Below, in pieces: positions 22,132-31,467 of a DNA stretch of 64,000 bases. Positions within the stretch are counted from its first letter, which is position 1; every line of letters begins with the position of its first letter. The notes under the pieces were generated by a model, which saw nothing but the letters and a program-made list of their open reading frames with translations, had not been told where the DNA came from and made no database searches. Source of the stretch: Flavobacteriales bacterium (GTDB lineage Bacteria > Bacteroidota > Bacteroidia > Flavobacteriales_D > CAJJDF01); NCBI GenBank assembly GCA_018609055.1, contig JABAYJ010000009.1, positions 17,343 through 81,342 of the forward strand. Reading direction: 5' to 3'. A program made the translations under genes and the position numbers.

Positions 22132-23121
22132 TTAATAACTACCTTCATATATCAAAGAAATTTCGAATCCTCCCTGAAAGGCTGATGCTGGAATAAGTTT
22201 AGACACATTTACATCATAACTTGCTCCTAGTTGGATTCTTTGTTCCCAATCGAATTTAACGATTGCAACTACCGCATCATTGTATCGGTATATTGCTCCA
22301 AACTCCAAGAAAGAAGAAGTGTAATAACCAGTATAGCTAGATTGTAACCCTAAGTTTAATTTATAAGTTGCACCCACAGCAATTTCTGTACTAGCACTTT
22401 GGTTAGATACAAATAGAGTAGGAACTATATAGTCGTTTCTATATTCTAAAGGAATTTCAGATTTTGCATGAGCAATAAATCTAGTTCGCCTTTTATCTGA
22501 ACTACTTGATAAAGTAGCTTGCCTTGTTTGAGTAAGATTGGCCATACTTACTCCAATATTGGTTTCATTCTTTTTTCTTCCAATAAATCGAGCTAGGAAT
22601 CCCATGTTTAAATCAAAGTATGTGGAAGAGGTATTTAATACACTTTCTCCTGTTCCTAATGAACCATCATACTTTGTTCCGTTATATTGATTGTCCCATA
22701 TAAGGTTGGTGTAATTGGCACTTACTTGTCCGTAAGAAAATCCTAGTCCTACAGCTAAATCTAAATCCCTACTAACCGTTACAGATTGAGACAAAGAAAT
22801 TGTTCCTTCTGTTCTTCCGTAATTTGATTTTCCTGCTTTATCGTTATAAAAATGAACACCAACACCTGTTGTCTTCATGTCTTGCTTATTCTTTCTAATA
22901 GGCATGTCATAAGAAGCAAAAACAGTTTTAAATCCATTACCAACAGATGCCCATTGATTTCTGTAATTTATTGTAGCTCGGTAATCACCAAAATACGATC
23001 CAGCATTTGCAGGGTTTAATAGCAAAGGTGCTTCATACCATTGTGAGAAATGAATTCCTTGGCCAAAGGAAAATATTCCCAAAGCACAAACAAACAATAA
23101 GGATGTTATGATTTTTTTCAT
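22132..23121 (-). CDS. PorP/SprF family T9SS outer-membrane protein
   Basis: HFSQWYEAPLLLNPANAG, NYRNQW, GASYDVNVSKL, GGFEISL; follows a type-B CTD gene. Confidence 0.92.
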   Translation of the reverse strand: MKKIITSLLFVCALGIFSFGQGIHFSQWYEAPLLLNPANAGSYFGDYRATINYRNQWASVGNGFKTVFASYDMPIRKNKQDMKTTGVGVHFYNDKAGKSNYGRTEGTISLSQSVTVSRDLDLAVGLGFSYGQVSANYTNLIWDNQYNGTKYDGSLGTGESVLNTSSTYFDLNMGFLARFIGRKKNETNIGVSMANLTQTRQATLSSSSDKRRTRFIAHAKSEIPLEYRNDYIVPTLFVSNQSASTEIAVGATYKLNLGLQSSYTGYYTSSFLEFGAIYRYNDAVVAIVKFDWEQRIQLGASYDVNVSKLIPASAFQGGFEISLIYEGSY

Positions 23122-26100
23122 TTATCTGGTTAGGGTTATATCTCCCTTATCTACTATTTTTTCTCCGCTTACAAGTGTCATTTTCATCAAATAAAAGTAG
23201 ACTCCAGCTTCTGCGGGTTTACCTTTAAAATTACCATCCCAACCATAATTTACATCATTGGATTCAAAAACAACTTTCCCCCATCTATCAAATATTAAAA
23301 ACTCTACAGATTCTGCTTCACTACTTCTAACAAACATAATATCGTTTATTCCATCACCATTTGGTGAGAAAATATCAGCTATAAAGAATGTCTGTTCACT
23401 TACGCATATATTTTGTGTAAGAGTATCGAAACAAGCTCCACCATTTTGTACGAAAAAAGTTACGGTAAAGTTTCCTCCTGTTGTATAAGTATGTTGTTCA
23501 CTTATGTTTGCAGGATTGTAAGGGATTGTAGTACCGTCACCAAAGTCCCAAAAACCTCCTGTTCCTCCAGTAGAAAGATCAGTAACTATTAATTTTTTGT
23601 CATTTGAACTCAAACATTTTGGATAAGTATCTGGTGAAAGACTAAAGTCTGCTATTAATTGTCCAAAACCTGGAACGATTAAAAATGTATCTATAAAACA
23701 TCCAAAAGAATTGGAAACTCTTAAATCAAATCGAGTATTTCCTGGTCCAAATACGGTATCTGTTGTACTAACTGGATTTGTCCAGTTGAACGTATAAATA
23801 GCTTTTTGAGTTTGATCAAAAGTTGCAAAACCATCATCTCCGAAACAAACTGTAGGACTTGTGTAAATGTTTGGCGTAATAGAAAGTACAGTTACATTTA
23901 TTGTATCAGTTGTAGGGTCTGAACAACCATCAGAAAGGGTTAAAATATAATTTCCTGAGCTAGTAGGAGCAAATGTTGAAGCATTAGATGTTGTTGGGTC
24001 ATGCGACCAAGCATAAGTATAAGTTGGATTTGGATATCCACCCATTCCATTCCCAGTGAGGGTAACATTATCTCCTAAGCAAATAGTATCTGCTGAGGTT
24101 GTTAAGTTTACTGATAAAGAATCTCTTACATAAACAGTTTTTTCTGCAGAAGTAAAACAAACTCCAGAACCATAAGAATATATTATTTGTTGGTTTCCTT
24201 GTCCTGTAATTCTTGGATTAAATATCCCTAGAGTTTGATTGTAAATTCCAGTTCCACTCCATGTTCCAGAAGCTGGTGAACCTATAATGGTTGTGTTTTG
24301 GTTAGTGAAACAAAATGTATCTGCTAGTGTTATTACAGCACTTGCAAAGGAATATACTGTTATACTAATTGTTTTATCACAGATTCCTCCAATGGTTCCG
24401 TATGTAATCACATTAACTCCAATTGAAGCTAAAGATGGATCGAAAATTCCTTGAATACTATCTGTAATTCCTTGCCCTCTCCATATGGCACCCGGCATAT
24501 TATTGATGCTATCTAATTTAAATGCTGCTTGAATTGAACAAACTGTAGAATCGGTATAAGAAAGTGTATCTGGATAAATAGCTATTATAACTGAATCTTG
24601 ACAAGTGTTTTTATCATAATAAATGGAATGATATCCATTCCCTAATATCCTTGGGTATATGTAATAGTTGCCAGCATAATTTTGTGTTCCTGTTCCAGCC
24701 CAAACACCATATTGTGGTTCAACTGATAAGCCAGTTATACTAGATATTAAAATAGAATCTTGAGATGGGCAAATGTAGACTGTATCCTGAAATACGTTAG
24801 TTTGAACTACTTCTATTTCAAGTGTATCCGTACAACCATTAAAAGTATACACCAAACTACTATTCCAATTTCCTGGATTTGTATTTGGCGTAAAAGTTCC
24901 TACTGCATTAACTCCAATTCCACTCCAAACACCAAGTGCTGGAGAAAAACCTAAAAGATTTATGGATGCTTGTGATGGACAAGCATTTGTGTCAGGCCCT
25001 GCATTCACTAATACTACGTTCATATCAATAGAATCTTGACATCCTAAATAAGAATAGATGACTATATTACTTCCGTTATTTGCTGAAGCTGGATTAAAAG
25101 TTCCTAGTGCTCCAGATACAATTCCAGTTCCTGTCCAGTTACCTCCAGTAGGAGTATGTGGTATGTTAAATTGTGGTGCAGTACTACAGAATGTATTTGA
25201 ACTGTATGAGAAAGCAATGGTATCAACAAAAACATTGATTGAATCTACACAGCCATTAACAGTATAGTATGCGGTAAAGTTTCCGTAAGTAATTGGATTA
25301 AATGTTCCTAAAGTTGAGTTCACATTTATCCCAGTCCATATTCCTCCTGTTGGTGAGCCCACATTTAAATTAATAGGAATTCCACTTCTACATAAAGTGA
25401 TATCTATACCTGCATTTGGATCTGTTACTTCAATTAGAATAGTATCGAAACAAACATCAACATTATAAGTAATTAAATGTGTTCCAGAACCTGCAATTGA
25501 AGGGTCAAAAGTTCCTAATAAAGTACTTGTGATTCCAGTACCACTCCAAGTTCCACCTGGAGAATTTGATGTTAATGTAATAGGAGAATCGTAAATACAT
25601 AATGGAGCTACAACATTTATAGTTGGATCTATTACATCAATTGTAATCGTATCATATAGGACCAAATTTGTAGAAATCTCAGTAACTTGTAAATAGAAAG
25701 TTGTATCATCAGTTGGACAGATTAAAAATGGACCAGCTGAATTAGGTAATCCGTTACTCCATAAGAAATTATATCCATCACATCCACTCGCAAACGCTCT
25801 TACAGATCTACATCCACTGCTACAAATAGTATCGTCATAATTTGTTGTAAGAGTAAATGGACAATCAGTTATTTGAAAAGTATCTCTGGCAATTATTGTA
25901 ATAGGTCCTTCACAAGAATCTGTAAATGAAAGGTCTATCTCTAGAAAATAATCGCAGTTTTGTATAAATCTAGGGCTAATTTGTACTCTAATAGAATCCA
26001 TAAATCCATTGGTACAGTTTAATGCCGTTTGGTTAGTAACAGTATAATTTCTTGATGGGCTAGTTATTGTAATAGCCATTGAATCTAATAAATAACAAGG

Positions 26101-30505: not shown

Positions 30506-30516
30506 TTTATAAAAGA

Positions 30517-31467
30517 TTAAAAATTAGCATATTCATCCGTTTTCATTAGTTCACGGATAATAAAAGGTAAATCTGAATTTGATTGAAAATGAGTACTGTA
30601 ATTGTAGATTTCAGAAGTTGTAGGAAACCTACTCATGTATGATCTGTAAACCCAAGTAACCATTCCATCATTAAATTCAGTAGAGTTTGCAGCTATTGTA
30701 GAAAAATCATATTTACTCGCGCCAGGTTGAGCAAATAAAATTCCTGCTATATCTGCATCCACCATATCATATGAAGCAGTAAATTCATCAGTTGTAGGAA
30801 ACCTGTAGAACATATTATCAAACACAGCATTTACATAATTAAATGAATTCATATTTATTATGTCATAAAGACCATTGTAACACATTCTCCTACACATTTC
30901 ATTGAAAGTAATACTTCCGTTTTTAAGTGCAGTATCAGAAGTTAGTATGTCTTCGTATATTTTACCTTGCTGAGTTCTCCAAAAATAACTTAATAAATTT
31001 CCATTTAAGCTATCTACTTGAGCTAGTGAATATTGAATACCCATTTCCTGTGCGATTGAAAAATCTGGAATCCCTTCTAAAAATCGAGCTTTTTGAAGTT
31101 CGTAAATATTTGAGTGGAATAATTGTTTAAAATTATCACCATTATTTTGAGGTGTTGTATCGGTTTGTAGGGATAGCACAATACTTTCTCTAGTAGCGAA
31201 ATTTAAATTATTACTTTCTAGTAATATTACTAAAGAATCCATTTCTATATCAAGAGGTTCTCTACCGGTTAAATCAATAAAAATTCTATTTATATAGTTT
31301 TTTACTTTAATCGTAGGTACTCCGTAGTAACTAGGCGCATCATTATTAGCTATGAATTTATCATCTTTTTTACAAGAGGATATGATTAAGCTACTTAATA
31401 TCAGCAGGTAGAGTAATTTTTTCATAAAAAGCGTATTGTTTAGTATCAAGTAACAAGTTAATAACAT
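30517..31467 (-). CDS. Hypothetical lipoprotein resembling DUF1549 (likely start ATG 31425)
   Basis: MKKLLY..ISSC lipobox; YINRIFIDLTGREP; YRFPTTDE and SRFPTTSE; LMKTDEY. Confidence 0.55.
   Translation of the reverse strand: MLLTCYLILNNTLFMKKLLYLLILSSLIISSCKKDDKFIANNDAPSYYGVPTIKVKNYINRIFIDLTGREPLDIEMDSLVILLESNNLNFATRESIVLSLQTDTTPQNNGDNFKQLFHSNIYELQKARFLEGIPDFSIAQEMGIQYSLAQVDSLNGNLLSYFWRTQQGKIYEDILTSDTALKNGSITFNEMCRRMCYNGLYDIINMNSFNYVNAVFDNMFYRFPTTDEFTASYDMVDADIAGILFAQPGASKYDFSTIAANSTEFNDGMVTWVYRSYMSRFPTTSEIYNYSTHFQSNSDLPFIIRELMKTDEYANF

Follow-up and report, generated by a model that had tools for sequence, protein, structure and literature searches.

Do an exported enzyme, a set of small lipoproteins and a surface-displayed protein encoded side by side make up one cell-envelope system, and is such a system of a known kind? 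The question is raised by seven genes located at 22132-31467 of a 64,000-nucleotide stretch of DNA from a Flavobacteriales bacterium (assembly GCA_018609055.1, contig JABAYJ010000009.1, positions 17,343 to 81,342), which is called the window below. The seven open reading frames (ORFs), all on the minus strand, are named g1 to g7 in the order of transcription. g1, g2, g4 and g5 code for lipoproteins, g3 for a protein with a twin-arginine translocation (Tat) signal, g6 for a type IX secretion system (T9SS) cargo with a type-B C-terminal domain (CTD) and g7 for a PorP/SprF barrel. A sequence-only reading had listed these products, with gaps of 0-24 nt between co-oriented genes, and had taken the cluster for a split PSCyt1/DUF1549/DUF1553/DUF1501 module tied to T9SS. 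The ORF coordinates (intergenic gaps of 11, 24, 4, 3, 9, and 0 nt) agree with that layout, and the lipoboxes, the RREFIK motif of g3 and curated models for g6 and g7 agree with the list of products. We found that the seven genes are a real, conserved and expressed cluster, probably one operon, and that this operon is a split, T9SS-linked variant of a kind of module already described and functionally uncharacterised. We lean slightly towards reading it as one cell-envelope system of two units (g1-g5 and g6-g7), in which g6 would cooperate with a haem and metalloenzyme complex.

Conservation and expression of the probable operon

About 1000 close relatives of g3 were found in the clustered protein collection, mainly in Flavobacteriales metagenome-assembled genomes (MAGs), and every one of them is labelled 'hypothetical'; a pattern scan located g3 relatives in 473 species genomes. 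Gene neighbourhoods were counted in the best 80 related loci, where g3 identity is 51-97%. The order and strand of g1-g6 are identical in all 64 loci that are not cut by contig ends while the flanks differ, and therefore the arrangement is not due to chance. The expectation of the sequence-only reading that the five small genes would co-occur in other genomes is borne out by this order. Gaps across the related loci are short (median -1 nt, 94% of them 30 nt or less).

The remaining 16 of the 80 loci are cut by contig ends, except for one odd locus (L111, a Bacteroidota MAG with 51% g3 identity), which has no recognisable g1, g2, g4, g5 or g6 despite about 2.5-3.5 kb of flank; rearrangement or poor assembly may explain this exception. 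Of 251 genomes sampled from the window's order, 58 have a member of the g3 family, and these represent 26 of 88 genera. They cluster in four families, and a second copy is found in some of the genomes.

The organism lives in marine or freshwater plankton, and contigs at least 99% identical to the cluster are present in five public metatranscriptomes. Single contigs of run X13 cover 29255-31452 (g3-g2-g1), 28372-29276 (g4/g3), 26214-28399 (g6 start, g5, g4), and 21475-24046 (g6 end, g7), and every gene junction of the cluster is bridged in this run by unstranded contigs, for which DNA carry-over is possible. No break in transcription was seen before 27198: RNA contigs cross the g5/g6 junction (27198-27208) in three of the five metatranscriptomes (X13, X27, and X28).

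At the upstream end, cluster contigs stop at 31452/31487 and new contigs begin at 31506/31512 at a different depth. RNA coverage of the RNase G gene (31564-33500) exceeds that of the cluster 4- to 5-fold in each of the five metatranscriptomes, and contigs break in the 96-nt spacer, which is consistent with RNase G being a separate transcription unit. A scan for sigma-70 promoters and terminators, which is unsuited to Bacteroidota, gave results at or below shuffle expectation.

A split counterpart of a planctomycete fused protein

In two loci (L134 and L135) the gene directly upstream of a g3-like enzyme, a member of the intermediate Tat family described below, encodes a single protein of 902 or 1153 aa. 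It has an N-terminal FEERIQPIFAANCGTSGCHG motif, which is followed by PKD repeats and by a C-terminal region matched by the hidden Markov models (HMMs) of g1 and g2. This fused partner has about 100 relatives, which belong to Planctomycetota wherever they are named, and about 40 of the 100 have a precomputed PSCyt2 match. In profile alignments made with hhalign, from which the percentages below are taken, the last 360 residues of the fused partner match g1 in columns 37-248 (209 columns, 89.9%, E 1.7e-6) and g2 in columns 246-370 (125 columns, 98.6%, E 7.5e-16), i.e., the g1-like and the g2-like parts follow each other in the same order as the genes of the window. g4 matches the N-terminal domain (78.5%). 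This domain in turn resembles PSCyt1 (88.6%), and the C-terminal part of the fused partner resembles the DUF1549 module (94.5%, 49 columns). At one and the same position, members of the fused-partner family have either CXXCH or CX4CH, the two alternating among members.

Since g1, g2, and g4 are colinear with one fused protein that adjoins a g3-like enzyme, the window cluster is, as judged by profile alignment, a split version of the planctomycete module of a fused partner and a Tat enzyme. This module (P0143/P0151; L134, L135) is the closest relative that could be demonstrated: its partner combines the CXXCH/CX4CH domain, PKD or FHA, and the g1-like and g2-like parts, and its enzyme is a Tat protein of about 395 aa of the 'GGVR' type. 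g3 matches the enzyme, g2, g1, and g4 match the partner colinearly, and CX4CH is found at the same site. In contrast to the window, the planctomycete partner is fused and lacks a lipobox, g5 and a T9SS cargo, while the 'GGVR' enzyme lacks about 100 residues present in g3. The earlier claim of a split PSCyt1/DUF1549/DUF1553/DUF1501 module thus stands as a distant split counterpart, recognised via the fusion and the profiles, but not as Pfam membership.

Two more genes follow that of the g3-like enzyme in L134 (7197-11281). The first encodes a multihaem cytochrome of 1026 aa, with ten CXXCH motifs and an LVIVD repeat, and the second an EF-hand protein. Here too, the enzyme family is found together with electron carriers.

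g2 passes the Pfam model DUF4214 (PF13946) with 24.1 bits against a cut-off of 23.2 (E 3.9e-5). Scans with Pfam and NCBIfam found nothing for the g1 of the window, nor for its g4. Across the families, DUF4214 matches at E<=1 were obtained for 25 of 35 g2 members and, weakly, for 19 of 35 g1 members; the other sub-threshold matches in the g1 family are to PSCyt2 (12 of 35), PBS_linker (11 of 35), and PSD1 (4 of 35). They fall at the two ends of g1: the N-terminal ~50 residues match PSCyt2 positions 19-70 and DUF4214, and the C-terminal ~50 residues match PSD1 positions 217-241, DUF4214, PBS_linker, and DUF1800. Full-length membership of g1 or g2 in DUF1549, DUF1553 or DUF1800 was rejected, as hhalign gave at most 18% (g1 against DUF1549, 18%; g2 against DUF1553, P 0.0098). 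The CRRMC sequence of g1 was ruled out as a counterpart of the PSCyt2 CxxCH: the cysteines are not conserved in the g1 family, which does not conserve the Cys pair of the PSCyt2 motif CxxCHDHKFDP. What g1 and g2 have in common with DUF1549 and DUF1553 is a DUF4214-like module of about 50 residues only.

Copies of the cluster that have no T9SS pair define its core. Loci L130-L133, from the same family and order as the window and including congeners, have a second divergent five-gene copy (g3 E ~1e-130); the window's own genome has the seven-gene copy only. In these paralogues and in distant homologues (L127/L128, L129, and the P0166 contig), g1-g2-g3-g4(-g5) is kept and followed by unrelated genes. 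Since neither the paralogous nor the distant copies have the CUB cargo and PorP, the core of the operon is five genes, and the T9SS pair is a clade-specific addition, stably kept.

g3, a Tat protein related to DUF1501

The product of g3 starts with MKRREFIKK, and R3, R4, and F6 are invariant in 30 homologues. The match to the Tat signal model TIGR01409 is weak (E 0.12); TatC is encoded in the genome. Residues 20-32 (29882-29920), with the PYILPSGRLFA stretch after the Tat h-region, are invariant or nearly so in 30 homologues, which is far more conserved than is usual for a signal-peptide cleavage region. This stretch may be a docking or retained segment.

No Pfam or NCBIfam model matches g3, and a PDB sequence search with the g3 profile was empty even at E 10. 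The AlphaFold2 model of g3 has a predicted local distance difference test (pLDDT) value of 76 and a predicted template-modelling score (pTM) of 0.81. Foldseek comparison of this model with PDB returned sulfatases, alkaline phosphatases, and phosphonate monoester hydrolases (E 1e-8 to 1e-5, probability 1.0), with low TM-scores of 0.3-0.4 and no close solved relative. According to its predicted structure, g3 has the fold of the alkaline phosphatase (AP) superfamily. A profile search of 1.8 billion representatives retrieved 976 g3 relatives, of which the remote ones match Sulfatase, Phosphodiest, Metalloenzyme, and DUF1501 models.

The nearest outgroup of g3 is an intermediate family of Tat proteins of about 395 aa, which have the AGGVR motif at the end of strand 1 in common with it. 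Six of the ten intermediate-family proteins scanned match Pfam DUF1501, two of them above the cut-off. A direct g3-DUF1501 alignment score of 85-92% was discarded as inflated by the shared Tat signal. Because trimming of the signal peptides lowered this score, we relied on the chain through the intermediate family, run with signal peptides trimmed: g3 aligns with the intermediate family at 100% (E 3.5e-59), and the latter with true DUF1501 proteins at 94% (E 1e-7). The motifs of g3 and DUF1501 can be aligned pairwise (D-x-CH/WDTH, ECGRN/EFGRT, YDHSD/GRDHH, MAGP/AGGG). g3 has a His (G130-H131) at the nucleophile position of the fold's hydrolases, and DUF1501 has a His there as well; no CxPxR motif and no Ser/Thr nucleophile motif were found in g3. 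We class g3 as related to DUF1501 and not as a member of it. Of the earlier DUF1501 assignment, the AP fold, the Tat motif and the link via the intermediate family remain, but the Pfam threshold is not reached and the direct signal is weak.

g4, a putative cytochrome, and g5

Mature g4 was aligned with the PSCyt1 region of 13 true PSCyt1-PSCyt2-PSD1 proteins taken from Bacteroidota genomes and verified with Pfam, which gave 94.4% (E 9e-8, 70 columns). The common pattern is aromatic-x3-I/V-F-x-P-x-C...CH-D/G-G, V-x-PG-x4-S-x-L-x-x-R, M-P, W-I-x-x-G-A. In 33 sequences of the family, C66, G70, C71, H72, D73, and G74 are invariant, and M133/P134 are at least 90% conserved. The CXXCH of PSCyt1 is not present in the g4 family: all 65 members, as well as the distant copies, have CX4CH instead, with varying spacers (ANSG, AVGG, LVRG, GVPA, AASG). 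The AlphaFold2 model (pLDDT 83) has a helix, the CX4CH, a helix, a Met-containing loop and a helix in a layout like that of class-I cytochromes; an Ig-like beta-sandwich comes after them. The genome also has a gene for a System II maturation protein of the CcsA type. CX4CH of g4 is best treated as a putative haem site, for which the alternation of CXXCH and CX4CH in the planctomycete relatives is the best argument. Thus the earlier comparison of g4 with PSCyt1 holds at the level of profiles, but neither the Pfam threshold nor the canonical motif supports it.

These features of g3 and g4 bear on another explanation, in which g3 would be a plain nutrient-scavenging hydrolase (phosphatase, phosphodiesterase or sulfatase-like) exported by Tat for its metal centre, with lipoproteins as scaffolds, a structural or non-haem CX4CH, and no redox chemistry. 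PhoD and PhoX are exported by Tat because of their metal centre, and scavenging of organic phosphorus is common in the marine and freshwater plankton to which the host belongs. The structural neighbours of g3 and the Sulfatase, Phosphodiest, and Metalloenzyme matches of its remote relatives would suit such a hydrolase. The His in place of a CxPxR or Ser/Thr nucleophile motif, as in DUF1501, does not. Besides, strict conservation of Cys-X4-Cys-His and Met-Pro with free spacers in g4, as well as the recurrence of cytochrome domains with the enzyme family (including the ten-CXXCH protein of L134), argue for more than a structural role of g4. We consider the plain hydrolase improbable and prefer the reading in which the enzyme works with a haem protein.

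g5 always follows g4, in the five-gene copies as well. It has no Pfam or NCBIfam match, no detectable relatives outside the module, and no similarity to g4, g6 or the fused planctomycete partner.

The T9SS pair and the lipoprotein anchors

g6 contains CUB (E 1.3e-4), PKD, and a type-B CTD matched by CHU_C and TIGR04131 (E 1.3e-17 and 1.6e-14). The CTD (residues 1273-1357) passes TIGR04131/PF13585 with 53.8 bits against a cut-off of 35 and 64.1 against 27. g7 is matched over its full length by the PorP/SprF models PF11751 and TIGR03519 (E 5e-39 and 2.6e-47; 134.8 bits against 22.3 and 161.7 against 90.55). The g6 genes are a true orthologue set, conserved over the whole length in 59 loci with identity down to about 30%.

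In the window's clade, g6 is longer by about 200 aa at residues ~340-530 (window ~25600-26180). This segment, which 83% of the orthologues lack, repeats the preceding Cys-rich module (NVSPSALPQCDSNYFEVDFDR... / DNTAENPSCNNRWFRVKLDR...).

g6 adjoins g5 in all 64 uncut loci, and a PorP gene directly follows g6 in 42 of the 55 loci with room for it, being absent in the other 13. The tie to a T9SS cargo proposed in the sequence-only reading is thus stably kept in this clade, but it is not part of the core. A shared operon does not need to mean a shared function: g6/g7 could be an ordinary pair of a type-B cargo and a PorP, serving adhesion or gliding, and g1-g5 an unrelated periplasmic module, brought together by genome compaction. 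This would agree with the five-gene copies that do without g6/g7, with the loss of PorP, and with an RNA depth that is lower in mid-g6 than in g1-g5. It would also agree with the number of such genes in the genome, at least 25 for type-B CTD proteins and 7 for PorP, several of which form pairs at other sites. Nevertheless, an orthologous g6 has stayed beside g5 in every uncut locus in spite of its divergence and of the differing flanks, and the gap between the two genes is 9 nt and is crossed by RNA contigs. We therefore regard two independent functions as unlikely, though not negligible, and keep to the reading of one system of two units.

The four lipoboxes are IISSC-KKDD (g1), GLSNC-KKET (g2), MAQGC-KKNE (g4), and LVYGC-KKEE (g5). 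The mature N-termini (regions 31372, 30446, 28540, and 27592) all have the form C-K-K-[D/E/N]-x. Strict agreement with the K-(D/E)2 lipoprotein export signal is found in g1 (CKKDD) and g5 (CKKEE), and likewise in about one third to one half of the family members. In Capnocytophaga, K-(D/E)2 is the signal which sends lipoproteins to the cell surface (PMC5080379). By analogy, some of the parts with CKK[DE] starts may face outward, near g6.

Such a location would also suit a role of g1-g5 as accessory factors for modification, folding, attachment or movement of g6, similar to SprC/SprD for SprB in Flavobacterium johnsoniae (sprCDBF). The order of accessory genes, type-B cargo and PorP/SprF-like gene presumably resembles that of sprCDBF, and there are AP-superfamily transferases, LtaS and EptA among them, whose substrates are envelope molecules. 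The surface signal of g1 and g5 and the CKK[DE] starts would place the lipoproteins near g6. However, the module exists without g6 in its paralogous, distant and planctomycete forms, and to our knowledge Planctomycetota have no T9SS. A purely accessory role of g1-g5 appears very unlikely to us, and the two-unit system remains our preferred reading.

Proposed mechanism and points against it

In the two-unit system, g1-g5 would be a split form of the module that combines a Tat-exported DUF1501-type enzyme with a cytochrome/helical partner. g3 would be a metalloprotein of alkaline-phosphatase fold that is already folded when Tat exports it. g4 would be a monohaem cytochrome c that has a CX4CH site, an Ig-like domain and a lipid anchor; g1 and g2 would make up the helical partner, and g5 would be a small accessory lipoprotein. 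Because their counterparts are fused in one planctomycete protein beside a g3-like enzyme, g4, g1, and g2 probably form one physical complex with g3, which would be tethered to the outer membrane.

The second unit (g6-g7) would consist of a CUB-headed repeat protein, which T9SS exports by way of the type-B CTD, and of a dedicated PorP/SprF-like barrel that keeps this protein at the surface. g6 may supply surface capture or binding, a task that PKD, Laminin_G or CBM modules inserted in the fused relatives may fulfil; in the window's clade, g5, the Ig domain of g4, and g6 anchored via g7 may take over the function of these inserts. Electrons would then move between the haem protein g4 and the metalloenzyme while the latter acts on what has been captured. 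The analysis shows how the genes are ordered, conserved and expressed, which folds and homologies their products have, and that a fused counterpart exists. The assembly of a complex, the loading of g4 with haem, the part played by g6 and any chemistry are inferred, and a haem-assisted metalloenzyme working on a surface-captured substrate is suggested with low confidence. In its most far-reaching form, the operon would encode an extracytoplasmic redox enzyme of a new class, for which the alkaline-phosphatase fold serves as scaffold, with a Tat metalloprotein having His for the nucleophile, a haem-loaded CX4CH lipoprotein, helical partners at the outer membrane, and substrate capture by CUB; we think this rather improbable.

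Several observations weigh against the two-unit reading. None of the Pfam families of the expected module is reached. DUF1501 (PF07394, threshold 27 bits) has no match to g3 at E<=1 and none anywhere in the genome; once signal peptides are trimmed, g3 aligns weakly with DUF1501 directly (P 0.0045) and with the DUF1800-paired DUF1501 subtype (0.3). PSCyt1 (PF07635, threshold 22 bits) does not match g4 and matches one of 33 family members at E 0.048. The best g1 family members reach E 5e-5 for PSCyt2/DUF1549 (PF07583, 29.8 bits), covering positions 19-70 of 209 only, and E 0.004 for PSD1/DUF1553 (PF07587, 28.5 bits), covering positions 217-241 of 244 only. The haem site of g4 is putative, and Foldseek with the whole of g4, in which the beta-sandwich dominates, returned beta-sandwich matches only and no cytochromes. 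The five-gene copies found in the same family and in distant lineages, together with the loci lacking PorP, indicate that the T9SS unit is not essential to the core. As to transcription, the contigs are unstranded with a possible carry-over of DNA, and one of those from X13 (21475-24046) crosses the convergent g7/epimerase junction, extending from the epimerase 3' end across g7 and into g6; it may represent read-through, antisense RNA or DNA carry-over. AP-fold enzymes, moreover, are normally hydrolases or transferases and have no need for a cytochrome.

Comparison with described modules

Modules of DUF1501 with PSCyt and PSD domains were reportedly noticed by Studholme in 2004. A module of DUF1501 with PSCyt1/PSCyt2/PSD1 and inserted binding domains was later described without a function (Kamneva et al., 2012; PMC3542564), and a DUF1501/PSCyt-type module was noted in Verrucomicrobia (PMC5615132). 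Modules of this kind, composed of PF07394 and PF07635/PF07583/PF07587, are found in Planctomycetota, Verrucomicrobiota, Lentisphaerota, and some Bacteroidota. Our literature search found no paper naming the g1-g7 operon.

As in these modules, a Tat enzyme of AP fold in the window adjoins a partner made up of helical R-x-P-T/D-x-x-E modules, binding domains, and a cytochrome domain of the c type, and every part is exported. Unlike them, the window has the partner split into three lipoproteins with a fourth small one added, CX4CH rather than CXXCH, and no second motif (CxxCHDHKFDP) of PSCyt2, and the Pfam thresholds are not reached. Inserted binding modules are absent as well, and their function may be served by the CUB protein, which is separate and displayed through T9SS.

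Pairs of DUF1800 (PF08811) and DUF1501 genes (L120-L125) also have a helical partner directly upstream of a Tat DUF1501 enzyme, as here, but contain neither a cytochrome nor lipoproteins. The C-terminal module of g1 is weakly similar to DUF1800 positions 230-291 (hhalign 12.7%, below all thresholds). The g6-g7 pair resembles the sprB-sprF pair of Flavobacterium johnsoniae and other pairs of a type-B CTD cargo with PorP/SprF in that both proteins pass curated models and the stop of one gene abuts the start of the next. It differs from them in being embedded with an enzyme/cytochrome module and in having an N-terminal CUB in the cargo.

The DUF1501+PSCyt/PSD modules have been a puzzle since 2004 and 2012, being present in dozens of copies per planctomycete genome, all exported. 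The window operon is built on the same plan in minimal form, occurring once in a genome of 2.5 Mb and having its domains encoded as separate small proteins, and the link through gene fusion shows which of these form a set. The operon also hints that type IX secretion and an envelope enzyme system may be functionally connected, in a cluster whose proteins are almost wholly unannotated in about 470 species genomes of abundant aquatic Bacteroidota. If the redox-enzyme reading is true, the split operon would be a tractable model for hundreds of DUF1501/PSCyt paralogues of Planctomycetota.

Coordinates and gene calls

Table 1. Features of the g1-g7 operon, with positions counted from the first letter of the window.
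Feature	Coordinates	Strand	Description
g1	30517-31467	-	316-aa ORF, helical lipoprotein; DUF4214-like modules at both ends
g2	30002-30505	-	167 aa, helical lipoprotein, C-terminal DUF4214 domain
g3	28613-29977	-	454 aa, predicted Tat-exported alkaline-phosphatase-superfamily protein, DUF1501-related, 'GGVR' type
g3 twin-arginine signal region	29882-29977	-	residues 1-32, then invariant PYILPSGRLFA stretch
g4	27652-28608	-	318-aa lipoprotein; PSCyt1-like class-I cytochrome c domain (~50-165) and Ig-like beta-sandwich (~170-318)
g4 putative haem c attachment motif CANSGCH (CX4CH)	28393-28413	-	residues 66-72
g4 putative distal Met133-Pro134	28207-28212	-	
g5	27208-27648	-	146-aa lipoprotein
g6	23122-27198	-	1358-aa T9SS cargo; N-terminal CUB 26782-27060, Cys-rich Ig/PKD-like repeats, type-B CTD 23143-23382
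g7	22132-23121	-	329 aa, PorP/SprF-family outer-membrane beta-barrel; start abuts g6 stop
spacer 5' of g1	31468-31563	-	probable promoter region and operon start

The cluster is flanked by housekeeping genes, which are not kept beside it in other genomes: those for RNase G, HU, and a tetratricopeptide repeat (TPR) protein upstream, and convergent genes for a NAD-epimerase and a DAHP synthase/chorismate mutase downstream.

The upstream ATG of g1 gives the N-terminus MLLTCYLILNNTLF, while the signal peptide begins at the second ATG at 31425 (MKKLLYLL). Since the homologues measure 300-304 aa, the true start is probably at 31425, giving a product of 302 aa, and the annotated start would be 42 nt too far upstream.

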